From a virus: 64,000 bases of DNA. Where the stretch lies: the IMG/VR virus record IMGVR_UViG_3300036715_002535, positions 47,837 through 111,836 of that record, one strand, 5' to 3'. Every line of letters starts with the position of its first letter. Position 1 is the first letter of the stretch. The notes below the pieces were generated by a model. It had not been told where the DNA came from, made no database searches, and saw nothing but the letters and a program-made list of their open reading frames with translations. This document shows, piece after piece, positions 37,886 to 51,785 of the stretch. The translations under genes and the position numbers were made by a program.

Positions 37886-38089
37886 ATGCATCACAACACC
37901 AAATCCTTCTTAGCTCCCGGCTTCGTACCGGCAGGAACTCCCATCCTCACATCTACTGGCTATATCCCAGTCGAACTCCTGAAGGTTGGAGATGTTGCTA
38001 TTGGACTCGACGAGCATACCCTCGAACCCATCCTTGTGACCATCACTGCAATGAGTGAAGAAATGACGCACAAGCCCGAAATCGAATAA
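37886..38089 (+). CDS. Stand-alone N-terminal Hint/intein-like fragment
   Basis: FVPAGTPILTSTGYIPVELLKVGDVAIGLD matches Hint block A pattern but has no Cys1. Confidence 0.55.
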   Translation: MHHNTKSFLAPGFVPAGTPILTSTGYIPVELLKVGDVAIGLDEHTLEPILVTITAMSEEMTHKPEIE

Positions 38090-38211: not shown

Positions 38212-38420
38212 GTGATATACTTCCTAACCTGGGAAGTATATCACGGATTAAGATTTATTTTAGTATCCGAAATACGTAAATTTTCCCAAGATTTCCACAC
38301 CACCCCGTGAGGTAATCCCTTGCCGAATGAAGAAGCCTGGGAAGTATATCACGGATTAAGATTTATTTTAGTATCCGAAATACGTAAATTTTCCCAAGAT
38401 TTCCACACCACTCCGTGAGG
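38212..38420. repeat. 13-bp inverted repeat (38212-38244) and 85-bp direct repeat (38228-38312, 38336-38420); origin-like
   Basis: GTGATATACTTCC/GGAAGTATATCAC; two AT-rich copies differing at one base. Confidence 0.9.
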
Positions 38421-38705
38421 CGCTACAGTGCGCAGACAAACTGTACGGTCAAAGCCTAAGACCAAGCTGCCCAGAGAATGATCTCGAACTACTATGCCGT
38501 TTTCCTTAGGGGTTTCTTTCGAACTATTCCTTGATGAGATAGGCGAAATCTTATTCTGCGTACTAAGATCTAACTTCTTTTTGGTATTACGTGAAGTTGA
38601 TTCTAAATCATTTAACTGAGAAGGGGAATTCACCAGGGTAGTATCCTCAGATGAGTCCGAGGAGTAGGATGGGCTTTTTCCAGGGGTTTTGATAGAAGGA
38701 ACTGC

Positions 38706-41531
38706 TTACAGTGCGCAGATAAACTCCAATCCCTCCGGTACAAGATCGAAGCCCAAGATCAAGCGCTGCCCAGAGGGATTGACACAGAAGTTCGAAGCAC
38801 CCAAGCTGAATACTGATCCATCCAACCTAGCACGCTGCTTGATATCCGTGACCTTCCCGCCTACATAGAGAAAGCCCTTGTGTGCCCGGTAAATCGTCTT
38901 GATGCCTACCTTGTGACCCAAGAGCCTGTCCTTCCAACCTACCGCTACCCTAACCGTACTCTTCTTAAGCAATTCCTCGTAGGTATGCACGAGGATCCTA
39001 CCATTGTCGAATTGTACCACTAACTTATCCGTGGGCTCCACGCAAACTGCCGTTTTAAGTGGCACCCTACTGAAAGCCCTCCTACCATTAGGACCTTCAT
39101 CCTGCAACCGGCATATCAGCGTGCCATCGCTCCCCAACCCCACCACCACCTGATCCCTATCTGGCACAACTAATAAACACTCCTGCTGCTCCCGCTCATA
39201 CCCTAACCGCTTACCTGGCGCATATACCGATACCGCTTCCATATACCCACCAGAGTCCACGAATGAAAAATAATCCTTACATTCCCCTACTAACTTACCC
39301 GTGAACCCTCTTCCTCGTATAGGCTGATCCTGAGATAACTCCCATCCCTTATCTGTCACCACTACCCAATTACTCCTGGACTCTAACTTCTTGAATTGTG
39401 GCAAATCACTCTTATCGCAATACTTGGTTGTACGTGGTAGGTCCGCTGCCTTATAAAACTCTACTAACTCATCCACCTGCTTCTTCAATTCAAATAGAGG
39501 AGAGGTCCCTTTCCAATAGATATACTTCTCCCTACTGCTTGCGTACTTGAGCTTCAACTGCTCCTCGTTCAATTTCAAGATCTGCGATACCTTCAATGAC
39601 AAAGCATAATCTACCATCCGCGGCACGATGAACTTCGCTAATTCTTTTTTCACCAACTCCAAGGTTTCAGAACTAAGCGCCTTCAAGAACTTGGCGTGGT
39701 TCTGAATGATCTTGATCTGCGTATCCAACTCTAACGACTCTTGTTCATAGGTGGCTACGAGATCCGTAATACGTAGATCCCATAGTCCCAACCTATGCTG
39801 TGTCCAATAAGAGAGAATGTCTACCAGCGAGCACATCTTGATTTCGAATGAGCTTTCTTCACCACTCCGTGAGGCATCCTCGTTCGATGCGCCTTTTCGT
39901 AAGGGTTTCTTAGACTCGGAGGGCACTACCACGTGGAACTGATAGCTCTCACGCTTGATCAGAGCAGGTAGGATCCTCGTGCTGAACAAACGTGGATCTT
40001 TCATCACTACCTGCACGCTGACCGCTTCCGTCGAAAAGTCCGCGAGCTCGATCATCTCTTTCTCTACGAGATCAGCCCACGCAGAGCTCAGAGTCGAATA
40101 GGTGACTAGGGGTGCGAACCCAGTGATGGTCACCTTAGACTGCTTGAGATCGAGCTCATATGCGCAGCAGTACGCTAGAGAGCCGACCCCAGTGCGGTAT
40201 ATCTCGGCTATCTCGTCGTGCCCACTCAAGCAATAACACTTATTTTCGAGCTGAGGCCCCTCCATCAACGCAAAATAACTTTTTTCAGTTTTACTTATCT
40301 CACGGGAGTGGTTCGGGGAAACTTCTAAATTCCCTGGAACCCCATCTTCCACATCAACAACACCGGAAACCGGTGTGGAGGGATCATTATCGGGGGTAGG
40401 GTTACCCTTAGTCTTCTTACCACCAATAGGGGACTTAGAGTCATCCAGGGTGCTAATGCGTTCCTTTGCGAGGATCTTTTCGTACTGATCATTGATATAG
40501 GCTTGGGATGTTTTGGCTACGGACAGGATATGATGGGAGGGGATACTTCCAGAGAAGCCCATGGAGATGCCAGAGTAGCCATTGACAAGGATCAGGGGGA
40601 GGAGGGAGGAGAGGACTTCAGGTTCCTTTTCTTTGCCATCAAAGTTGGGTACAAAGTGGAGATATTTTTTATCCAGGAAGTGGGAGAAGCCCAGGTCAGT
40701 GATGCCGGATTCGGTATAGCGATAGGCAGCTGGGGGGTGGCCTTTGATAGATCCATAGTTGCCCACGCTTTGGATAAGGGGGTATTTGATAGTCCAGGGG
40801 GTGGCAAGGGCAACGAGGGCTTCGTATGCGGAGGAGTTATGGGTTACGAGGAGTTGGTCACCGCTTACGATGAGGGCATTTTCATAGTCATTGACGGTAA
40901 AGTCATACATAGGTTCAGGGGAGGGGAGTTCTTCAATTTGGATTGACTTGATATAGAGGGGATGGGGGAGGGAGGATTTATCTAGGACAAGTTTATCGGA
41001 TTGAAGGAGGGAGGGGTAGTGTTGGATAACTTGGTAGGGTTTCAGGTCTTCAGCTTTTATCCAGCGTTGATTTACAAAGAAGGGGTGATTAGAGGTGCAG
41101 CGTACAGTTTGCCCATTACTTAGGTGCAGGTTGTAGATTTTGGTTGAGTATTGACCAATGCGGAAGGAGTGGGCAATAGAGGGAACTAAGCGACCTTCTT
41201 TGTTGAGGGATAGGACTTCAAGTTGGGGGGTATGGGATTCGATGAGTTGGGGGATAGTTTTGGGGATTCCATCCAGGCTGAACAGTTTGGTGTTACCCTC
41301 GAGGCAATCTCCATGGGGATTGTAGCTTCCGATTACATGTCCAATGATCTTCGCGCACTTGAGGGAGCCACGATCTGGTTTGAGGCCCATTTCGTAGGCG
41401 GACCAGAGGATGCGTCGTTGTACAGGTTTGAGGCCATCACGGATATCGGGGAAGGCGCGATTGAGGGAGATATAGTGGCCATACTCCAGGAGGTTGGTTT
41501 TGATCAGTTGTTCAGCGACTACGTGGGACAT
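38706..41531 (-). CDS. gyrA: Type IIA topoisomerase subunit A (GyrA/ParC-like) with intein
   Basis: RAFPDIRDGLKPVQRRIL, PHGD, GNYGS...PAAYRYTE, VPNFDG..EPEVL..LLP.ILVNG.SGI.MG. Confidence 0.9.
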   Translation of the reverse strand: MSHVVAEQLIKTNLLEYGHYISLNRAFPDIRDGLKPVQRRILWSAYEMGLKPDRGSLKCAKIIGHVIGSYNPHGDCLEGNTKLFSLDGIPKTIPQLIESHTPQLEVLSLNKEGRLVPSIAHSFRIGQYSTKIYNLHLSNGQTVRCTSNHPFFVNQRWIKAEDLKPYQVIQHYPSLLQSDKLVLDKSSLPHPLYIKSIQIEELPSPEPMYDFTVNDYENALIVSGDQLLVTHNSSAYEALVALATPWTIKYPLIQSVGNYGSIKGHPPAAYRYTESGITDLGFSHFLDKKYLHFVPNFDGKEKEPEVLSSLLPLILVNGYSGISMGFSGSIPSHHILSVAKTSQAYINDQYEKILAKERISTLDDSKSPIGGKKTKGNPTPDNDPSTPVSGVVDVEDGVPGNLEVSPNHSREISKTEKSYFALMEGPQLENKCYCLSGHDEIAEIYRTGVGSLAYCCAYELDLKQSKVTITGFAPLVTYSTLSSAWADLVEKEMIELADFSTEAVSVQVVMKDPRLFSTRILPALIKRESYQFHVVVPSESKKPLRKGASNEDASRSGEESSFEIKMCSLVDILSYWTQHRLGLWDLRITDLVATYEQESLELDTQIKIIQNHAKFLKALSSETLELVKKELAKFIVPRMVDYALSLKVSQILKLNEEQLKLKYASSREKYIYWKGTSPLFELKKQVDELVEFYKAADLPRTTKYCDKSDLPQFKKLESRSNWVVVTDKGWELSQDQPIRGRGFTGKLVGECKDYFSFVDSGGYMEAVSVYAPGKRLGYEREQQECLLVVPDRDQVVVGLGSDGTLICRLQDEGPNGRRAFSRVPLKTAVCVEPTDKLVVQFDNGRILVHTYEELLKKSTVRVAVGWKDRLLGHKVGIKTIYRAHKGFLYVGGKVTDIKQRARLDGSVFSLGASNFCVNPSGQRLILGFDLVPEGLEFICAL
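40836..41306 (-). mobile_element. Mini-intein (157 aa, no homing endonuclease) in gyrA
   Basis: PHGD|CLEGNT...CTSNHPF...MYDFTV...VTHN|SSAY. Confidence 0.9.
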
Positions 41532-41617
41532 GGGGGGACCTCAGGGGTATAACCGGAGTGGAGAGGGTTTTCGCCTTGAACGAATAAAGAGAGGAGAAGG
41601 TAGACCTTGGATCGTTT

Positions 41618-41656
41618 GGAGTAACCCCTTTGAAAGTGGGGATGCCTGGTTATAAT
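41618..41656. promoter_or_regulatory. Class B promoter/cassette header, variant
   Basis: ggagtaacccctttgaaagtgggg-atgcct-ggttataat. Confidence 0.7.
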
Positions 41657-41673
41657 ATGGGATGGAGGGTTCG

Positions 41674-42159
41674 ATGACCAAGATGCGTATTCAGGCAGCA
41701 GTAGTCAAGACCAAAACATTCAACTACAAGGATGAGGAACAGGAGGCAAAGGCTTGGGCTACGAAGATGAAGGAAAAGGGTAACGTTGTCTTCGAGGATG
41801 ACAAGGGTTCCGATACCTACTGCTTGTACGCTGCACCTTCCAAGAAGGATATTCAGGATTGGTGCGAGGAGCAGGAGCAGGAGGTCAAGTTAGTTTCTTT
41901 CACGGCTAGGGTCCAGGTTGCCTCCAACACCTCCATCTGGGCAATCTTACGGCAGGATGCTTTCGGGCAGGGGGATGCCATTACTCTAGTAACTGCGTTG
42001 AACGAGCAGGAAGCATTTTCAATCTACGCTATTGAGAGTGCAGGAAGCATAGCGCCCTCAAACGTTTCTGAGGAACAAAACAGGGCGGTGCTGGAAGAAT
42101 TTTATGGGGACTACAAGGATGGTTACTACAAAGTTCTACCAACGGAAATGATTGGGTAG
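41674..42159 (+). CDS. KLRIxA-leader protein (MTKMRIQA)
   Basis: Leader motif, SD GGAGG, second motif-like ARVQVA mid-protein. Confidence 0.7.
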   Translation: MTKMRIQAAVVKTKTFNYKDEEQEAKAWATKMKEKGNVVFEDDKGSDTYCLYAAPSKKDIQDWCEEQEQEVKLVSFTARVQVASNTSIWAILRQDAFGQGDAITLVTALNEQEAFSIYAIESAGSIAPSNVSEEQNRAVLEEFYGDYKDGYYKVLPTEMIG

Positions 42160-42538
42160 TCGGCTCGTTTGGAGTATATGCTAGAGGGTTTCGCCCAAGA
42201 AGAACCTACCTTCATCGCGGGAGAGGTTCAGGAAGAACTTCTGGCCATCTTTTCGTTGGAAGCCAAGGAGGTAGCGTGCTTCGCCGGGGGTTGGTCAGTA
42301 GGGACCTGGAGTAGCTTCCGATCAAGGGATACGTGGATCAGTTCGAAGGGTCCGCCGTTCATGTTTAGTTCCTTTGTTCAGGGTGCGATCAGTTGGGTCC
42401 TAGGCTTTCAGTGCCCTTGCCAGGTTTGACGACGAGCTTGGATTCCAGCCACGCATCAAACTTTGGGAATCGTTCGCATAACTTCTCAAGAATCCAGATG
42501 AGGGGTGTTGCGAAGTTCTCTTCCATGGGGACCTCGTG

Positions 42539-42592
42539 GGGAGTAACCCTTTTGAAAGTGGGGTTACAATTACTTATGGTGAAGCTACGTAT
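42539..42592 (+). repeat. 54-bp promoter-plus-leader cassette header, copy 1
   Basis: gggagtaacccttttgaaagtggggttacaattacttATGgtgaagctacgtat, identical to 43740-43793. Confidence 0.95.
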
Positions 42593-43028
42593 TGCATCCC
42601 AAGGTGAGATTAATAGGATCATGTGGACCCTCGGTCATCTGCGGAAGGCAGTGAGGGGGCTTCACAAGTACGAGTCGTCTGTCAATGTGGAGGGGAAGGT
42701 AGCTCTCAAGGCAGCGATGGGAGTTTTGTTGGAAGTAATCAAGCAGGAAGAGGGTAAGATCGAGAAATTAAAGTTCGAGGGTGAAGAACATCCTCGAACC
42801 TGGAGCATTCGGAAAACGGTAAAGAGTCTGAGTTGGACCCTTCGGAAGTTGAAGTTTGCTTCCAACGATCTACAGATCTATCTGGGTCCACACCTTCTGG
42901 GTAAGACCACGATAGGTAAGGATGCCATTCTGCGTGCGAAGGCCATCATAGATCAAGCTGTGAATGAGATGCAGGAGAAGGTTAAGGCTCTCGAGGGTGA
43001 GCTGTGGAGAGAAGTCTTTCCTGATTAG
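42576..43028 (+). CDS. KLRIxA-leader protein (MVKLRIAS), two helical repeats
   Basis: Leader motif; WTL..LRKA / WTLRKL internal repeat. Confidence 0.7.
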   Translation: MVKLRIASQGEINRIMWTLGHLRKAVRGLHKYESSVNVEGKVALKAAMGVLLEVIKQEEGKIEKLKFEGEEHPRTWSIRKTVKSLSWTLRKLKFASNDLQIYLGPHLLGKTTIGKDAILRAKAIIDQAVNEMQEKVKALEGELWREVFPD

Positions 43029-43076
43029 TAGGTGCAGGTGTAGCACGAGAACAGTTGGTAATCGTTCTTCAGTAGC

Positions 43077-43116
43077 TGAAAGTGGGGTTACTATTACTTA
43101 TGGTGAAGCTACGTAT
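43077..43116 (+). repeat. Partial cassette header
   Basis: tgaaagtggggttactattacttATGgtgaagctacgtat. Confidence 0.9.
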
Positions 43117-43666
43117 TCAAGCAAGTGTCAAGGCGAACATGTGGGATGATGCTTATCACCCAAGTAAGCTTGGTCCCTCTTTGACCATCAACCCTTGGCA
43201 GGAAGATCAGTTCTGGGTGGCGCCAAAGGATCCAGGTATTCCCGAGGAAACGAAGCAGCATCTGAGGGAGTGGTTGCAATACAACAACAAGAGTTTGACA
43301 GGCGAGGATCTCAATTTCTTGATGCGTAAGTACTCTTACTCCGGGACGATGTTTCGAGGGGTGGGGTTTCAGACCATGGAAGAGATGGAGGAGTTTCTAT
43401 CCACGTTAGGGAATGAGAGGCATCCTACCTCGTGGTCCAAGTCTTTTGAGGTAGCCAAGGAGTTCGCTTCGGAGGGGCAGACTCAATCCTCCCTTCCCAA
43501 TCATTGGTTGGTTCTGAAGTATAAGGGCAAGGCATTCGACTTGCACAAAATGCATTTGAAGCTCTCTCCACCCAGTCAGAAGAAGAAAGATCGTGGGGTG
43601 GTGAGGGAGCAGGAACTAGTGATCCCTGCAGGATCCTACAGCTTCGAAGTAGTGGATAAGGGTTAG
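43100..43666 (+). CDS. KLRIxA-leader protein; putative R-S-E ADP-ribosyltransferase
   Basis: MVKLRIQA; MFRG, PTSWSKSFEVAKEFA, REQELVI motifs. Confidence 0.7.
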   Translation: MVKLRIQASVKANMWDDAYHPSKLGPSLTINPWQEDQFWVAPKDPGIPEETKQHLREWLQYNNKSLTGEDLNFLMRKYSYSGTMFRGVGFQTMEEMEEFLSTLGNERHPTSWSKSFEVAKEFASEGQTQSSLPNHWLVLKYKGKAFDLHKMHLKLSPPSQKKKDRGVVREQELVIPAGSYSFEVVDKG

Positions 43667-43739
43667 TCCTGCGTGCAGGTAGGGCAATATATTGCAGCCA
43701 GGGGTGGAGCCGCATGTGGTGCAGGCGCCTTGGAGGGTT

Positions 43740-43793
43740 GGGAGTAACCCTTTTGAAAGTGGGGTTACAATTACTTATGGTGAAGCTACGTAT
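43740..43793 (+). repeat. 54-bp promoter-plus-leader cassette header, copy 2
   Basis: Identical to 42539-42592. Confidence 0.95.
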
Positions 43794-44367
43794 CAAAGCC
43801 GGTCTATCTAATAGGGTCTACCATTTCACAACTCTTTCCTCGAAAGCATCTCAATTAGTTGTGGTGGATGTTCAGCCAGTACATCGTGGGTTCATTCACT
43901 TTGATGTTCCTAGTTTGATGAAGAAGTTCGAGGACTATGGACGGGTGCTCATTGTCTATAATGGGGCAGAGTTAGGTTACGAGGATAGTCCAAATACCAT
44001 TCAAGAGTGGTATTTGGAGGAGGGTATGAACGAAGAGGTTCATTTAGAGTTTAAAGATAAGGCTTACGGTTTTCTTCGTGGGGCAATGGATACTGGAGTT
44101 GCTGACGAGAACATCGTTGGAGCAATCAAGGTAATGCTCGAAGAAGACTTATCAGATAGCAGGGAATTATCTACCGAGATGCAAGAGCAGTTTGGTTTGA
44201 GTGAAGATACAGCTATCAGCATTCCGGATGATCTGATAGATGCCTTGAAGGATTTCAATGGGGCAGATATTTGCGGTGGTGGAGATAACGATTGTTTAAG
44301 AGAAGTGGAGTTGCTAGCTGAAGGTGCTGGCTTAAGATTCAATCGTTTGTATCGATTTGTTTATTAA
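43777..44367 (+). CDS. KLRIxA-leader protein; isochorismatase/cysteine-hydrolase-like
   Basis: MVKLRIKA; LVVVDVQP, K..GF, ICGGGDNDCL. Confidence 0.55.
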   Translation: MVKLRIKAGLSNRVYHFTTLSSKASQLVVVDVQPVHRGFIHFDVPSLMKKFEDYGRVLIVYNGAELGYEDSPNTIQEWYLEEGMNEEVHLEFKDKAYGFLRGAMDTGVADENIVGAIKVMLEEDLSDSRELSTEMQEQFGLSEDTAISIPDDLIDALKDFNGADICGGGDNDCLREVELLAEGAGLRFNRLYRFVY

Positions 44368-45776
44368 ATACGCGGTTCCTCGTGCCCTTTACGATTGGGG
44401 TGGTACGAATCCCACCGAGCCAGCTTCTTGATATGCATCTGCGAGCATAGCAACAGCTTTTTCAATTTTCTCTTTGAGTGAAGGGATTGCTTCTACAAGA
44501 GGGTGGCTAGTTACATGTTCCTCAATCGTGCAAATGATAACGTGTAGACGATCCACAACCTCGTGGACATGACCGTCATCTAGACCTTCAGGCAGGGGAG
44601 GGAAGGGTGGCATCATCTGAGTCCTACAATAACTGCGTATAAGTATCGGGGTTCTGGATCATAGTAGGTCGTGCTCTTGGCAATACTCTAGAGCAGCGAA
44701 TACGGGGCCAGTGATCCACGCTTGTTCAATTTCCTGGGAGGTCCATACTCTTCCAGCATTGTCTGGTTTGTCTCCCAGGTTCTTCATGGCTTCGCAGATA
44801 GGGCAATAGTCTCCAGTCAGGAGATAGGGTCCACCCAGTTCCACAGCTCGATTGGTGATCATCCAATGGCAAGACATCAGGGGATCGTAGGGTGCCTCAC
44901 CTCCTTTCAGTTCTGTCTGTAGGCGTGCTGCAGCTTCGCTACCACCTTGGGCTACGAGGTGTGACATACCGGTGGTTTCGATTGACTGGCGTAGGGCGGT
45001 CCAATGATATTCACAGATCTTCATGTGTTGATCCTTTAATCGTTGCTGGAGGACGATGATCGCGACTAGAGCTTCTCGATAGCATCACGAAGATCAGTTA
45101 CAGGATTCGAAATTTCAGTATTCTTGATCCCCTCGGTTTCAATCTTCATGCCAATGCTGATGGCCAGAGCCGCAAGTCCAAACCACCCTTCAGGGGATGT
45201 GGGTTGAACTGGGTAAATGCGTTGTTGCCAGAAGTCTGGTGTTCCACTATCAAGGATATGCAGTGGAACGTATTTTTCTAGGCTTCGAATGCAGTCTTGC
45301 AAGCCAAGGGTTACATCCTCAGTTTGATAGTCTCCAAAGAAGATATTGTAGGTACTTCCAAAGCCTATCTTTCGACCATCGAAGATCTGTCGGTACAACC
45401 TCGTCCAAGAATCGTGGGAGTACTGATTGTCCGGCATGCCTGGAATGATCAACTGTTCTACCAAGTTCGCAGGGAAACCCAGTCCCAGAAGAATCGTTTT
45501 GGCTAGCAGGTCCGGGTACTGGGTTACCAGAACGCATTCATCGCGTTCGAACCTTACTTCGTACCCATTGCCTACCTTCTTGATGTGAACGAATCGAAAC
45601 ACTTCATCGTTTGGTAGTCCGTGGATTCCACATTTTGGCGGAACCCAGCTTTCGCTGCGCTTCATAGTAACTCCATACGATAGTTTAAGGGTCCGTCGTG
45701 TCAGACCTGAATAGTTAACCCTACGTTCCTTGTTCTAGCAGGAGGGTTCTAATGGGTACCTCACGGTTGTAGGGAT

Positions 45777-45800
45777 TAACCTTGAAAGAGGGGTTACAAT
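45777..45800. promoter_or_regulatory. Class B motif taaccttgaaagaggggttacaat
   Basis: Same TAACC...GGTTACAAT architecture, in a divergent gap. Confidence 0.75.
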
Positions 45801-45823
45801 AGATAGATAGATGGAGGATTCCA

Positions 45824-46414
45824 ATGGGTAAGCTCAATTGTAGCAGGGAAGAAGGACCGGGTGTAAAGAAGCTTCGTATCCGTGCTGGTGTGCCTAAGAA
45901 GGCGGCACTCGTGGGCATGCCAGTCCCAGGCTGGTTCATCTTCTACAATCTGGGAAGCGGTAACTGGGAGGTCGAGGCAGCGCCCAATCCAAATACTGCG
46001 AGCCGGGAAGAACTGCAGAAGGTGATGGAAGACTTCAAGGAGTTTGGGTACAATGACAATATCAAACGGCACGGTCATAGCCGTACCTTCTATGTAGAGA
46101 TTACACCAGAGATGGTTCAGGATTGGGCTTCGGAAGGTGTGGAGAGCTGGGAAGATGATATGGTCACAGATGCCATTCAAGGACTTCCAAACACGGATAT
46201 TCGAAGAATTTTAAAGCAGAAGGGCTCCAAGAAGGCATCTGAGCTCAGGATTGTATCTGGGAAGAAGGACCAGCCCAAGAAGCGTGAAACCTTTGAGGAA
46301 GCAGTCGAGCGCGGGTACAAGGAATCCAAAGAGGTATTCGAGAAGCTTCAAAAGAAGCCGGTCCTGGTATCCGATGGGTCTACTACTTCGGACTTGGGAT
46401 CTCAGCAATCCTAA
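45824..46414 (+). CDS. KLRIxA-leader protein (MGKL...KKLRIRA)
   Basis: Leader interrupted by a 13-codon insertion; plus-strand island. Confidence 0.7.
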   Translation: MGKLNCSREEGPGVKKLRIRAGVPKKAALVGMPVPGWFIFYNLGSGNWEVEAAPNPNTASREELQKVMEDFKEFGYNDNIKRHGHSRTFYVEITPEMVQDWASEGVESWEDDMVTDAIQGLPNTDIRRILKQKGSKKASELRIVSGKKDQPKKRETFEEAVERGYKESKEVFEKLQKKPVLVSDGSTTSDLGSQQS

Positions 46415-48448
46415 AGAATGCGCAAATAAGACTTGCCACGGAAAGAGGTGGAATCCTGTAGCCAGGAAGGTCCTACGATGATCAGGTCTGTGCGGTTCAG
46501 GGTCTTGGCTAGTTGCTTGGGGTACTCGAGGTCATGGTTGGGCCACACATAGATGGCACGTTGTGGGGCTTTAAGCATTTGTTTTGTGGTACGGCCTGTT
46601 TGGTTCATGGTGGATCTGCGTAGAAGATCTTGCGTATGGTGCAGTTACCAAAGTCGAGGGTGCCTTCGATGAAGGTGGGTTGTCCTTCGAGGGCCACGAT
46701 CAAGCAGATCTTGCCTTCACGGTAGGTGGTCCACTGTTGCAGCCTCAGGAATCGTTTAGGGTGTAGGAGATAGAAATGGCAATGGATCTGAGCCTTGAGG
46801 ATGTGGAGTAGTCTTCTCATCTTACCATTCATTTTAGTGATTTCGTGATGAAAGTCTGGGTTCGAGATCATGATTCGCTCCGAGGGAAGTAACCCACTAA
46901 AGATCCTGAAAGAGACTTCTATCCCTCACATCGCTAAGGGGGCTTCGCGTGGTGGGTTCGTTGTAGCTGGGTTCCTTCTGATCCGTGATGGTCAGATGGG
47001 CAGGGTTGTCGCCTGTTATACCCCAAGGGCCTTCTTTCAGGACAGCGAACGCAGGCCACGTGCTATTTGAGCCAGATCGAATCCAGATCGCAGTATCTCC
47101 AGGGAGAGGGGAGTTCTGAAGTAATTCGATCAAACGGTCTTTGGTCAGTACAGGGCGGTCACTCATTCGTCCAGCTTCCTTTTTAAGGGTGTCCCAGTTC
47201 TTCACTAGATTCACCAGATGGTTGGCTTTCGCCTTTTGCTGTTCGGGACTACCATAGGTTGCGCAGCACATGCATCCACCTGACAGGAGGGCGTTACGGC
47301 AGGTGCAGTTCTAGTGGCAGGGCTGGTCAGCGAGGAGGCAGGGACAGGTCATATTTTTCCTCCCTTCGGGATCACTGCAGAGCAGGGTATTGGGCGCTCT
47401 CCATGACTCGATCAAACACTTTCCAGGCTAGACCAGGGTTCTTCTCACCTTCGAGATAGCGCTTGGCGTAGCCCAGGGCAGTACCTTTGTCTATTCTGCG
47501 TGAGGACCATCTGACTAGGGCTTCTGCGAGGGTATCTGCTGCGAGGTTCTCTGCTGGGGTCATAGTTTCACCGGAGCAGCCTTTTGATCCTCTTCGGATC
47601 CCCAAGCGGTACGCTTTACCGTTACTTCCCAGGAGCCAGCACGAGGTCCCAGCTCTAATGGAAAGACTGAGAGGGTAGCTTCGGGGTTGAGGTTCTTCAC
47701 GAAGGAAACCAGAAAGTCCTTCCACTTCTGGGCGCACTCCGCGTCCATTTCAGCAACTCGTTTCAGGAAGAACTCTGGTAGCTGAGTGTTCATGTTGGCT
47801 CCTAGTAATGATAGAGGTTCCCTTGCTGGGGGGATTCTGCCTACGTGTTTGGGTTCACTTGCTTCGAAGTTCATTTTCTAGCTTCTCGACACGTTCATGG
47901 CACTGGCGAGGGACATATCGATGAACGTCAGTGCCAGAGTGGTTCCTCAATCATCCTGCCAGTTCTTCTGGAAGGCATCGAGCTCCTCCTTGGACTTGGC
48001 TACATATTCCTGAATTGTCATGTTAGTTCCAATACACTAATTGAGGTGAATTCTTGACACCACAGTAAGGGCATCGAGGTTTTCCAAAGAAAGCGAATCG
48101 ATGGAAGTCTTTGTCACATCTTCCGCAACGAAGACCCCAGGTTCGGAACCATGAGATGGTCACGATCGTTGGGTAGTAGAGTTTCGTGGGTAACGCCTTA
48201 CCATCCATCTCCATCAATCCCTCTTGATAGAAAATATAACGTTTCTTTCTTTGATTGCTTCGATAGATTTTAGGATGTCCTCGTCCGAAGGGGCGGTCTT
48301 GGGGAGGTACTCCGGTCGATAAACCTTCAGATCGAATGCTTCAAGAGCCGAATGAATGATCCGAGCGATGGTGGTGCCACCATGACTACCTGGGCCTGAA
48401 ATCGTGATGGTCACGTGGATGGGTTCGGACATGTGGATACCTCCCATT

Positions 48449-48476
48449 GGTAACCTTCGATGAAGAGGGTTACAAT
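48449..48476. promoter_or_regulatory. Class B motif ggtaaccttcgatgaagagggttacaat
   Basis: Between divergent genes. Confidence 0.75.
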
Positions 48477-48494
48477 AGAATATTGGAGCAATTC

Positions 48495-48728
48495 ATGGTC
48501 AAGCTTCGTATTCAGGCAAACGTACCTGGATTCATGGAAGATGATGCGATCATCCGTGATTTTGTGGGTACTGGCTTGAACGATCGTATGTTATATGAGC
48601 ACATCGTACAGCAGACTGCGAGCCATCAGATTGCCAGGTACGTGGACAAACGCCTGAAGGAGTTGAAAGAGACCCTTGGAGAAGAAGGACTTTGGAACCG
48701 TCATCTACAATTGAAAGGGACGAAATGA
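48495..48728 (+). CDS. KLRIxA-leader protein (MVKLRIQA)
   Basis: Leader motif, SD GGAG. Confidence 0.7.
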   Translation: MVKLRIQANVPGFMEDDAIIRDFVGTGLNDRMLYEHIVQQTASHQIARYVDKRLKELKETLGEEGLWNRHLQLKGTK

Positions 48729-48961
48729 CCAAGCATAAGATCACTTCTGGTAAGAAAGCGGAGTTGTTCAACGAAGGCAACTGGCAGGATCATCTAGTGC
48801 AGTTCGTCGAGTCCTGGGCACACGATCAGATCAATGCTGACGGTACAGGTCCTACGTGGAAGATGGAAATCGAAAGGGCTAAGCAGGAGCTCTTGGAGAA
48901 GCTTGAAACCACCTGCACGGAAATAGAAGAGAACCTTCACAATGGCGAGTACTACGTTTAA
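48725..48961 (+). CDS. Acidic protein with weak leader (MTKHKITSGKKA)
   Basis: Coupled ATGA overlap within the leader-gene operon. Confidence 0.6.
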   Translation: MTKHKITSGKKAELFNEGNWQDHLVQFVESWAHDQINADGTGPTWKMEIERAKQELLEKLETTCTEIEENLHNGEYYV

Positions 48962-48972
48962 GGAGAAAGACC

Positions 48973-49158
48973 ATGGGTAAGCTACGTATCCGAGCCACCT
49001 TCAAGGCATTGAAGTTGCCCAAACGACTTCTGGAAGAACAGAAGAAGATGGAGAAGGACAACTCCGACATGCATTGGGTGCAGGATAAGATGAAGAACGA
49101 TACAACTCTGGAACAGCAGGAAGAAGCTACTCCAGGGGACAACGAAGGAACAGATTGA
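48973..49158 (+). CDS. KLRIxA-leader protein (MGKLRIRA)
   Basis: Leader motif, SD AAGGAG. Confidence 0.65.
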   Translation: MGKLRIRATFKALKLPKRLLEEQKKMEKDNSDMHWVQDKMKNDTTLEQQEEATPGDNEGTD

Positions 49159-49850
49159 TGAAACTCCACATCAAAGCATCTCTCAAGCGTGCAGTTCTCA
49201 CGATCACCACGCTTGAGGATGTGCTGATGGCGCGTCAGTTCATCACAGAACGGGATGGTCAGTTCCAGGAAGGTGGAGCGATCATTGCACCTGAAATCAT
49301 CAAGCAGATGCAGGATCAAGGTTTGATCCACTTGCGTTGGCAGGGGAATGATTACTCTAACTGGGAGCTTACTCCTGAGGGATTGAAGGCCAAGGAAGCT
49401 CTGACCAAGAAAGTGAAGTACAAGAAAGGTGATGAGATCTGGTACTTCCAGCCCACCCAATTTCTAGATATGCCACGTGTACCCAATTCCTTTTCAGGTA
49501 TCTACGTCGCTTGCATCCTCTGTACAGTCAAGAGTTGCGGTATGAAGCAGATGACCCTTGAGCGCAAGGTGGGTGGCAAGATGATGCAATACTTCATCAA
49601 GCCAGAACTTTACAAGAAATGGGCGGTACCTGCTACTCAGTTTCATTCCGAAGCTGAAGTAGTTGCCTATGGGACAAAGCTCAGTGCAGATGAACTAGAT
49701 CGTGTGATAGAGTGGGACGAATCCCGTTGGCGAAATGCTCAGAAGAAGTACGCAGAAGATCCCAAGGGTCTAGCGTTTGAACAGAAGGTTTACGATGATC
49801 ATAGGACACTCCTTGATCTGGTGAAGCCCTTCGCAAGGATCGTAGACTAA
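49155..49850 (+). CDS. KLRIxA-leader protein (MKLHIKA)
   Basis: Leader motif. Confidence 0.7.
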   Translation: MMKLHIKASLKRAVLTITTLEDVLMARQFITERDGQFQEGGAIIAPEIIKQMQDQGLIHLRWQGNDYSNWELTPEGLKAKEALTKKVKYKKGDEIWYFQPTQFLDMPRVPNSFSGIYVACILCTVKSCGMKQMTLERKVGGKMMQYFIKPELYKKWAVPATQFHSEAEVVAYGTKLSADELDRVIEWDESRWRNAQKKYAEDPKGLAFEQKVYDDHRTLLDLVKPFARIVD

Positions 49851-51785
49851 ATCCTGACGGTATTCTTCTCCGTCCTGGATTGGATCAGAGCTGCTGCCTG
49901 CTTCAAGGAGCCTTCGGTCCATAGATCGAATCCTTGTGCGCGAAAGAGGGAATCTCTGCAGGTATCCCCTTCAGTTGCAAGGGTGACCCCTCCAACCTCA
50001 AGATGTAGCTTACCAGACTGGGCACCCTGGTAGAGTTTGATCATCAACTCCCGGTTACGAATCCGTTTCGTAATTCGTTGACATAGTTCGATTGCTGTGG
50101 AGTAAGGGGAATGAGCTTCACTACTTGACCAACAGCGAACATTTTCTTGCAGTTGGGACACTCTACGTTGTAACAGAATTCCGCATCTACGTGGCTGTGG
50201 TGACCACATAGGCAGTGCAGATCCATGCACACACTTGTGCCCTTCCACTGTATCCAACCATGAGCGATGCCCTCAGTTGAGGTATCCTGACCATACACCG
50301 CATTGTAGTGTTCAGCCCAACTATCGGTCATGCTCTCACCTTAGTAGATTCTTTGTGATACCACAAGAACGCGCAGTAGTTAGAAACATCCAAAGGATCA
50401 CCCTTCTCTAGATGCACCCTCAGATGTTCTCTGCACTCGTCCATCCAGTCATCTCTTGACCAGTCAGCTTCGTACCCATACTTGTCTTGAGCCTTCTTCA
50501 ACTTCTCTGCCATTGCCTGAGCAAATCCCAGGATCAGGGAAGCGGTCTTAGGGTTGAGCTCAGCAGGGATCTGTACAATCCACTGCTTCTGTAGAACTGG
50601 GCACCATTCAGGTGTAATGTAGGAATCTCCGATTGATTTTCGTTCAGGGAAGTCTGGGTGCTTGCAATAGTGATCGAATCCCGAGTCTCCCTGGCACTGA
50701 TACCTTTCCTGTTCGTGGCACTCACAACCCATGCAGTGATGTTTGATCTTAGGTCCAATCATGCCAACCTCGAATGTAACCAGTCAGCGTACTCCTGCAT
50801 ACGAAGCAGGAGGATCGCGAGCAGGGGATTGTCGGTGATAGTAACTTCCCAGTGCTTTGTTTTCAGTAGGACCTTATGAGGTGTACGATCACCTTCCCAG
50901 AATACGAAGACACTGGTTCCATTGAGAACAACGTCTAAGATCTCTCGACCATAGTAGTAGTAGAAGATATCGTTCAAGTTCGATCCGTGAATGTTTGAAG
51001 AAACTCTTTCTTCTTCCTTGGTCCAAAGGTGACTCCGGTTAGAGTCCAGCACTGGTAACGGTCTTCCATGAAAGTGGAATCCTGGGAATTGAGTTCCTCT
51101 CTTGTGGCTACGAACTTGTTCTGATTCGAGGCCCAGATCCCATACTTGTTCCGTACGATCTCGTAGTGTTCGAGTTGCAGGATACGAAGATCCTCCTCGT
51201 ACGCATCGGATAGTTCAAGGGTTGGGAAGTGAAGGGAGAAGCCATCCGAGCCGAAGGTAACTTGCATTTTGAACCTCATTTTAGATAACCGAAAGAGCCT
51301 GTATCTCAATAGTGGGGGTGACCTTGAAAGGGAGATGCTAGGCACCCTACTAGGGATGAGCGTAGAGCCCACTCCTTTGAAAGTTTCTCCGCCGTTCCGC
51401 TTACATTCGCAGCAGATGAGGGGTGCGATATCGTGGGTGTTAACTGGAACTGGGTTGGTCATCCAGCACCTGTGTATCGAGTGGAAAATCCACGTTTGGA
51501 AAGTCTGATGTTTCCGTTGGGAATGGTGTATCAAGTGGAAGGGGTCCGGAATAGAACATCCCAAGTTTGATGCACGCAGCACGAGCCTTGGCCTGCTCTG
51601 TGTAGATGCCCTCGAGTTCCCATCCCTTGTTCACAAAGGACTGACCTACGATCCAGACTTCCATTACTTCTTCTCCGGGTAAGCTCGTTGTTCTGAGAAC
51701 GAATAGATTGAACAGAAGGCAAGATCCTGAAAGAGCTCTTGAAGTACCTTGTGGGTCTTCTGTTCGGGAGTCAGTTTGACTTTCA

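Follow-up and report, generated by a model that had tools for sequence, protein, structure and literature searches.

Why should the same short DNA motif occur both in a non-coding spacer and inside the gene that adjoins it? The question is raised by a 64-kb stretch of DNA, referred to here as the window, which forms the right-hand part of the IMG/VR virus record IMGVR_UViG_3300036715_002535 (111,836 bp; estimated to be 56% complete). The region studied comprises gyrA, which encodes a homologue of the A subunit of DNA gyrase/topoisomerase IV, together with the ~520-bp spacer behind it, up to the last plus-strand open reading frames (ORFs), which converge upon gyrA. An initial annotation of this DNA had noticed that the end of a direct repeat in the spacer recurs within gyrA, in segments that did not look like topoisomerase sequence, and proposed that sites for replication initiation or packaging are overprinted on the gene and tolerated as protein loops. 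Our own reading, to which we assign a probability of roughly 0.6, is that the motifs are shared by descent and not by function, with gene-derived debris in the spacer and linkers prone to insertions and deletions (indels) in the protein.

The 85-bp direct repeat in the spacer is real. Its two copies (Table 1) are identical at 84 of 85 positions, and the sole difference falls inside the 13-mer that had attracted attention. There are no further copies in the 111.8-kb record, and a search of viral contigs with the end of the repeat returned no match. The 13-mer pattern, CCAC(C/T)CCGTGAGG, was found three times in the window, where 0.18 occurrences are expected; all three sites lie within 1.6 kb, and there is no other in the record. 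The occurrence inside gyrA, reported at 39862, turned out to be longer than claimed, with 16 exact bases (38406-38421 = 39860-39875) and 22 of 25 matching bases over 38397-38421 versus 39851-39875. We refer to the spacer copy as piece A and to its counterpart in the gene as A'. A second resemblance, between spacer piece K (38494-38518; translation KKPLRKTA) and K' in gyrA (39887-39911), comprises 21 matches out of 24 with two gaps, and its score of 23 is no higher than the best hit of the null; the match gains credibility only because it is adjacent to, and collinear with, the stronger A match. A third resemblance, an inverted near copy of the motif within gyrA at 40298-40311, requires two edits and dissolves into the background, as 6.8 ± 2.6 such matches per record are expected by chance.

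Further evidence for our reading lies between the two spacer motifs, and was missed by the initial annotation. When the spacer was compared with the whole record, the two best non-self matches both fell in gyrA and were only 2 nt apart in the spacer: one is the 16-mer, and the other covers the final 19 bases of gyrA, up to and including its stop codon. The latter forms part of piece E, which corresponds in decayed form to the final ~70-90 bases of the gene and scored 40 in gapped local alignment, compared with 22.4 ± 2.4 (maximum 30-33) for shuffled sequences. Three indels (2, 2, and 12 nt) and five mismatches set it apart from the gene, and every mismatch is a transition (G/A, A/G, T/C, C/T, G/A). 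Iterated alignment after masking yielded A (score 35), a further piece, B (score 24; 15 of 17 bases matching, codons 585-590), and K (score 23), all three of which lie within 100 nt of one another in both spacer and gene. B and K score above the third-best hits of the null, and each of them maps <100 nt from A'. In BLAST searches, A was found with an E-value of 0.002-0.012 and the core of E with 0.046.

Together, the four pieces make up a mosaic block of 148 bp, in which K corresponds to GyrA residues 541-549, E to ~912-941 plus the stop codon, A to 553-561, and B to 585-590. Aligned with a four-piece mosaic of gyrA, the block has 124 matches and 17 mismatches (~88% identity) and scores 126, whereas random gyrA mosaics of the same sizes score 13 ± 7, with a maximum of 58. 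Identity is uniform among the pieces (85-90%) and the 13-mer shows no extra conservation; given ~88% identity throughout, 16 consecutive matching bases are nothing out of the ordinary. In translation, the pieces (KKPLRKTA, LVLGFD, VQFVCAL-stop, and ASRSGVE) fall in three different frames. Assessed as a decayed partial gene duplicate, the spacer thus displays similarity to the parent, loss of frame, indels, and a lack of independent homologues; homology, mosaic order, and frame loss were all observed directly. Since E includes a stop codon and codes for conserved C-terminal residues, at least this piece moved from gene to spacer, and because it carries valines where the relatives do (LVLGFD, FVCAL), it either predates the allele that the phage now carries or came from a relative. 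The sharing of a motif between gene and spacer need not, then, indicate a binding site; here debris is the better reading, with the pseudo stop-codon end as its telltale sign. Two other explanations of the block were considered and rejected. It is not the template/variable pair of a diversity-generating retroelement, as the mismatches between E and its parent are not confined to adenines and there are three indels. Nor is the whole of 38423-38705 a collinear, internally deleted copy of GyrA 534-941, as its protein similarity is not significant (p = 0.14-0.63).

The mosaic is not the only gene fragment in this location. Another, an orphan Hint-fragment ORF 128 nt in length and lying 170 nt to the left, is an inverted copy of DNA at window -22195..-22068, where a 994-aa tail-like gene situated 60 kb away encodes its C-terminal HINT region. 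Its first Cys is replaced by Phe, and the domain matches, to Hint_2 and PT-HINT in Pfam, are both sub-threshold. The 994-aa gene is itself adjoined by a 392-aa transposase-like gene (phrog_506). The gyrA mosaic and the neighbouring 128-nt fragment together indicate that the spacer collects gene debris. In addition, 38421-38705 breaks into a local domain of negative GC skew, and this interruption fits with young DNA, or a recent arrival.

As to how the block came about, we infer that the spacer, lying between convergent gene blocks, gathered short copied gene fragments, and that the four gyrA pieces (K, E, A, and B, with B ~70 nt beyond A) were joined by illegitimate recombination or template switching, perhaps in the course of replication or recombinational repair. 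The 85-bp stretch holding the A and B pieces would have been duplicated later. The 16-base identity could then be an ordinary mismatch-free run at ~88% identity, or else have been left behind by short-patch gene conversion in the recent past, and the disordered linkers of GyrA would tolerate such events. The closest parallel is with the partial gene duplicates and pseudogene fragments found at mosaic junctions of tailed phages, products of illegitimate recombination and templated insertion: here, too, decayed, out-of-frame pieces of a neighbouring gene, including its stop-codon end, occupy a spacer between convergent gene blocks, with a fragment of a distant gene alongside. The present pieces differ, however, in being unusually short (17-70 nt) and scrambled, in that one lies within a recent 85-bp duplication, and in that one of their breakpoints falls where the functioning gene of a relative has an indel boundary.

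Table 1. Features of the gyrA gene, the spacer behind it, and their surroundings (positions in the window unless given as GyrA residues)
Feature	Position	Strand	Evidence or remark
HINT-region fragment, 128 nt, inverted copy	37924..38051	+	93% identical; self-BLAST E 5e-48
Hairpin, 13-15 bp perfect	38212..38244		Inverted repeat; RNA fold z-score -5.4
85-bp direct repeat, copy 1	38228..38312		Left end is the right arm of the strong hairpin
85-bp direct repeat, copy 2	38336..38420		Right 48 nt hold gyrA-like pieces B (38373-38389) and A (38397-38421)
ORF P0122, 94 aa, low-complexity	38349..38633	-	Inside a 118-codon stop-free run
Mosaic block, 148 bp	38373..38520	-	Order in gene direction: K, E, A, B
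Piece E, decayed gyrA 3' end with stop codon	38424-38476, extending to ~38490	-	Local alignment
gyrA (DNA gyrase/topoisomerase IV A subunit homologue)	38706..41531	-	941 aa, one open frame
Insertion 2 (~residues 537-561), disordered loop before coiled-coil helix	39849..39923	-	Alignment; pLDDT 39-48
A', gyrA copy of the repeat end, holds the 13-mer	39851..39875		Codes ASRSGEES; score 35 versus null maximum 30
K', gyrA copy of the second motif	39887..39911		Codes KKPLRKGA; marginal alone
Insertion 1 (~residues 355-420), disordered linker from N-terminal core to tower domain	40272..40469	-	Alignment; pLDDT 28-42
Sharp third-position G/C change-point, start of insertion 1	40449..40494		Residues 346-361; maximum-likelihood segmentation
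Mini-intein, 157 residues (residues 76-232)	40836..41306	-	Pfam Intein_splicing E 1.3e-12; after HGD motif
Third-position (G-C)/(G+C), coding strand	Residues 1-340		-0.6 to -0.9
Third-position (G-C)/(G+C), coding strand	Residues 380-600		About 0
Third-position (G-C)/(G+C), coding strand	Residues 720-820		Up to +0.8
Third-position (G-C)/(G+C), coding strand	Residues 860-941		About 0

On the protein side, relatives of GyrA were compared as proteins, with eight family members aligned first, followed by seven further close relatives taken from 90% clusters; conservation of the motif was accordingly judged from peptides. Full-length relatives are 89-93% identical, and those in which the sites were compared 89-95%. 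The alignment bears out the initial annotation in that both intragenic sites lie within real, lineage-specific, in-frame insertions. Insertion 1 is present only in P0001, P0125, P0124, and P0003, which form the nearest clade, and absent from P0005-P0009; insertion 2 is likewise restricted to the nearest clade (absent from P0005-P0008) and is variable there, with P0003 short of 8 residues. In an AlphaFold model of residues 233-941, the surrounding domains are confidently predicted, and residues 365-411 and 540-559 have a per-residue confidence (pLDDT) of <50. Identity to P0125 amounts to 80-81% in the insertions and to ~94-95% in their flanks. As they evolve fast and are predicted to be disordered, the earlier idea that they are tolerated as protein loops is right, and alignment and model together describe them as fast-evolving, indel-prone, disordered linkers at domain junctions. 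Linkers of this kind in an essential phage enzyme are hot spots, both of indel formation and of small exchanges of sequence. Mosaic recombination was not evident in protein identity profiles, in which the lowest identity to P0003 falls in residues 321-380.

Insertion 1 does not significantly match any other DNA of the record, and only insertion 2 has a true link with the spacer. At the 13-mer, the encoded peptide, A-S-R-S-G in the present protein, reads ATRS-DEG in P0125, P0124, and P0004, GTRS-DEG in P0126, and is deleted in P0003, while HSRE, at the site in insertion 1, is replaced by HPRE or HVGE in relatives. With the site peptide altered or deleted in GyrAs that are 89-95% identical, the DNA motif cannot be intact there. 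The initial annotation had named, as grounds for refuting its proposal, that the segments be conserved protein parts in homologues lacking the DNA motif, and the comparison goes part of the way to such a refutation. Repeat-derived DNA that is read as a tolerated surface peptide is also a feature of the Rickettsia palindromic elements, a many-copy repeat family inserted in frame in many protein genes. The present case differs in having three copies, one gene, and no palindrome in the shared part, and its insertions are without other copies in the record.

Several observations weigh against debris as the source of the shared motifs. Pieces K and B are individually marginal. The order K-E-A-B is impossible to obtain from one simple rearrangement, which is why template switching or repeated illegitimate recombination is invoked. 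Piece A is closer to this phage's own allele (ASRSG) than orthologues are, a likeness that would be expected from concerted evolution, and equally from a co-evolving functional site. Furthermore, P0003 lacks precisely the A segment, and this, together with the resemblance of the spacer copy to the phage's own allele, makes capture from spacer to gene, or short-patch gene conversion, as likely for this piece as movement from gene to spacer. Finally, gyrA also contains a switch in GC skew of origin polarity, which is left unexplained by debris.

That switch is a conspicuous property of the record. The two most extreme 300-nt GC-skew zones of the record, in which skew has a mean of 0 and a standard deviation of 0.118, both lie in gyrA (-0.53 at 38865-39664 and +0.55 at 40465-41414), and the cumulative GC skew of the whole record reaches its minimum at ~40.2 kb, passing from minus to plus as at an origin. 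The effect resides in silent sites. Skew at third codon positions ranges from -0.88 to +0.81 along gyrA (Table 1), and at four-fold sites the frequencies are C 0.60 and G 0.08 for residues 1-340 and G 0.42 and C 0.09 for residues 600-840. At the sharp change-point, G3/(G3+C3) rises from 0.13 to 0.53 (log-likelihood gain for one change-point, 70), while a second transition near residue 615 is softer and gradual. Because the skew extends into non-coding DNA upstream of gyrA (+0.45 at 41532-41661), it is a property of the DNA strand and not of codon selection, and because AT skew is ~0, it does not carry the usual signature of single-strand deamination. It leaves no imprint on the amino acids of GyrA, whose composition is like that of bacterial GyrA, and no G-quadruplex motifs were found in the skew zones, in which G-runs follow from base composition alone. 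A wider domain of ~10 kb (40165-50165) has twice the usual density of plus-strand G-runs, with an asymmetry of 0.5-0.6, and is driven by the plus-strand cassette genes, which have a G+T-rich coding strand, together with the N-terminal part of gyrA. The skew flip is independent of the shared motifs, and in our view the more valuable lead: if relatives share it, it would point to an intragenic origin or to a local strand-asymmetric substitution process for which there is no accepted mechanism.

It is because of the skew, and not the motifs, that an alternative to debris deserves to be kept in view. DNA could be opened or re-copied outward, time and again, from one fixed point in the centre of gyrA, either an intragenic origin or a site of recurrent break-and-copy repair, and such a process would write a mirror-image bias into silent sites and shed fragments into the spacer. 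We regard this as unlikely, albeit not implausible. We consider it rather improbable that the middle of gyrA (~39.7-40.5 kb, including both insertions) is specifically a start zone for replication, strong divergent transcription, or R-loops, with the insertions existing through a cis role of the DNA and the motifs being incidental. The cumulative skew minimum, the two flanking zones of extreme skew, the continuation of a silent-site effect into non-coding DNA, and the sharp change-point at the start of insertion 1 are all as such a zone would predict, and there is a precedent in the origin of phage lambda, which lies inside gene O, where the iterons and AT-rich region are coded as a linker of the O protein and in-frame deletions are viable (PMC6022878). 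However, the skew is local (~1-4 kb) and not replichore-wide, AT skew is not what single-strand deamination would leave, the second transition is gradual, and gyrA is not an initiator gene. Moreover, no iterons, clear AT-rich unwinding element, or sigma-70-like promoters were found: the lowest GC content over 300 nt is 0.42, compared with 0.49 for the record, and the AT-rich patch at 40262-40299 measures ~30 nt. The phage's cassette promoter motif is absent within gyrA, and the neighbouring plus-strand cassette genes are G-rich, perhaps for a different reason.

Alternatively, the skew zones, hypervariable linkers, and debris could all be scars of repeated recombination or gene conversion, either by intein homing with co-conversion of the flanks or by recoding of the kind seen in GRINS, with the sharing of motifs a by-product. 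The intein lies roughly at the centre of the C-rich zone (40465-41814), the region least identical to P0003 coincides with the change-point, and P0003 and the spacer mosaic share a breakpoint immediately ahead of the A segment. GRINS are duplicated regions of >500 bp with >80% identity and correlated GC and TA skews, in which intense third-position skews are tied to gene conversion (PMC8256042), and they are the nearest described phenomenon to the skew in gyrA, which resembles them in its intense third-position skews that change sign abruptly within a functional gene, and in the signs of gene conversion. Unlike GRINS, though, gyrA is not involved in any repeat of >500 bp by self-BLAST of the record, and TA skew is ~0. 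Furthermore, there is no flip in skew at the intein site, P0003 has the same protein without an intein, and the C-terminal G-rich zone has no mobile element. We think it improbable that all three features are scars of this kind.

The proposal from which the analysis started fares somewhat worse, and we doubt strongly that the shared 13-16-mer is a functional cis element (one that pairs with RNA, or is bound by a protein of replication, packaging, or regulation) that has been kept identical. In its favour are the occurrence of the motif three times in 1.6 kb and nowhere else in 112 kb, the length of the exact run (16 bases), the likeness of piece A to the phage's own allele beyond that of orthologous alleles, and the proximity of the origin-polarity skew switch. 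On the other hand, the peptides indicate that the closest relatives have not conserved the motif, the sole mutation between the 85-bp copies falls within it, and the match is embedded in a scrambled mosaic with a pseudo stop-codon end and the same ~88% identity. The match in insertion 1 is no better than chance, Rfam was searched without a match, there is no array of iterons (within 39650-40550, only two-copy repeats of chance size), and the terminase and portal genes, which would be relevant to packaging, are ~80 kb away. The likeness to the lambda origin that this proposal implied, cis-acting DNA in a coding region read as a flexible protein segment, is offset by the differences: there is here no array of 3-4 iterons, no clear unwinding element, and no conservation of the motif, and the gene is not that of an initiator. 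We therefore find the case for replication or packaging sites overprinted on gyrA unsupported, and infer that the motifs lack a cis function. Lastly, although simple counting predicts about three exact 16-mer pairs per 112-kb record, K and B are marginal, and the rest of the spacer ORF is not significantly similar to GyrA at the protein level, chance resemblance between low-complexity sequences is very unlikely, because extended piece E and the joint mosaic score far above the null maxima (40 versus 30 and 126 versus 58), and the BLAST matches of A and of the core of E both fall in the adjacent gene.

Debris, then, remains our preferred account of the spacer. ORF P0122 returned only itself from 5.8 billion proteins, with no homologues; the stop-free run that contains it (38349-38705; p = 0.013) follows directly on the stop codon of gyrA, in the same frame. 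The hairpin at 38212-38244 may act as a terminator for the plus-strand genes that converge on gyrA. It fails a canonical terminator scan, and neither canonical terminators nor sigma-70 promoters were detected in the spacer; no Rfam family matched.

The gyrA product itself matches Pfam DNA_topoisoIV (E 2.7e-62) and GyrA chains in the PDB (E 1e-40). A search for gyrB (PF00204) across the 112 kb of the record found no homologue; the left part of the record encodes terminase, portal, and tail-fibre proteins. Megablast against deposited phages revealed no near relative, the sole tblastn match was to a Vibrio phage at 22% identity, and searches for related loci found none in viral contigs (queries P0001, P0005, and A1) or in metagenome contigs (A1 and A2). 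The mini-intein has a larger counterpart, with an HNH domain, at the same GyrA site in P0009, and is absent from P0003. The record's own call of gyrA begins only at Met324 (P0002), and antisense ORFs extend over the N-terminal part of the gene at 40503-40946 (+) and 41223-41552 (+), one of which was called as a gene (P0131). The long antisense ORFs exist because C-ending codons open that frame, and it is the silent-site G/C flip that misleads gene callers into splitting gyrA and calling an antisense ORF. The ORF at 40503-40946 was rejected as a real gene, given that it hits only itself and that its frame is so opened.

A perfect 16-nt inverted repeat within gyrA (38987-39002/39967-39982) is centred on GGATCC, with arms 964 nt apart that both code for R-I-L; ~1.5 such pairs per record are expected by chance. 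Elsewhere, the record contains a partly palindromic family of intergenic repeats of 30-50 nt, in ~20 copies, which is absent from the gyrA spacer and is probably a regulatory element of the phage. Its sites are at window positions 2752, 4635, 6092, 10724, 16308, 22761, 26954, 27705, 28109, 35957, and 37035, with six more to the left of the window. Further local direct repeats were found at 59598-59695/59792-59888 (98 nt, 91% identity) and at 35940-36024/37018-37104 (88 nt, 85% identity).

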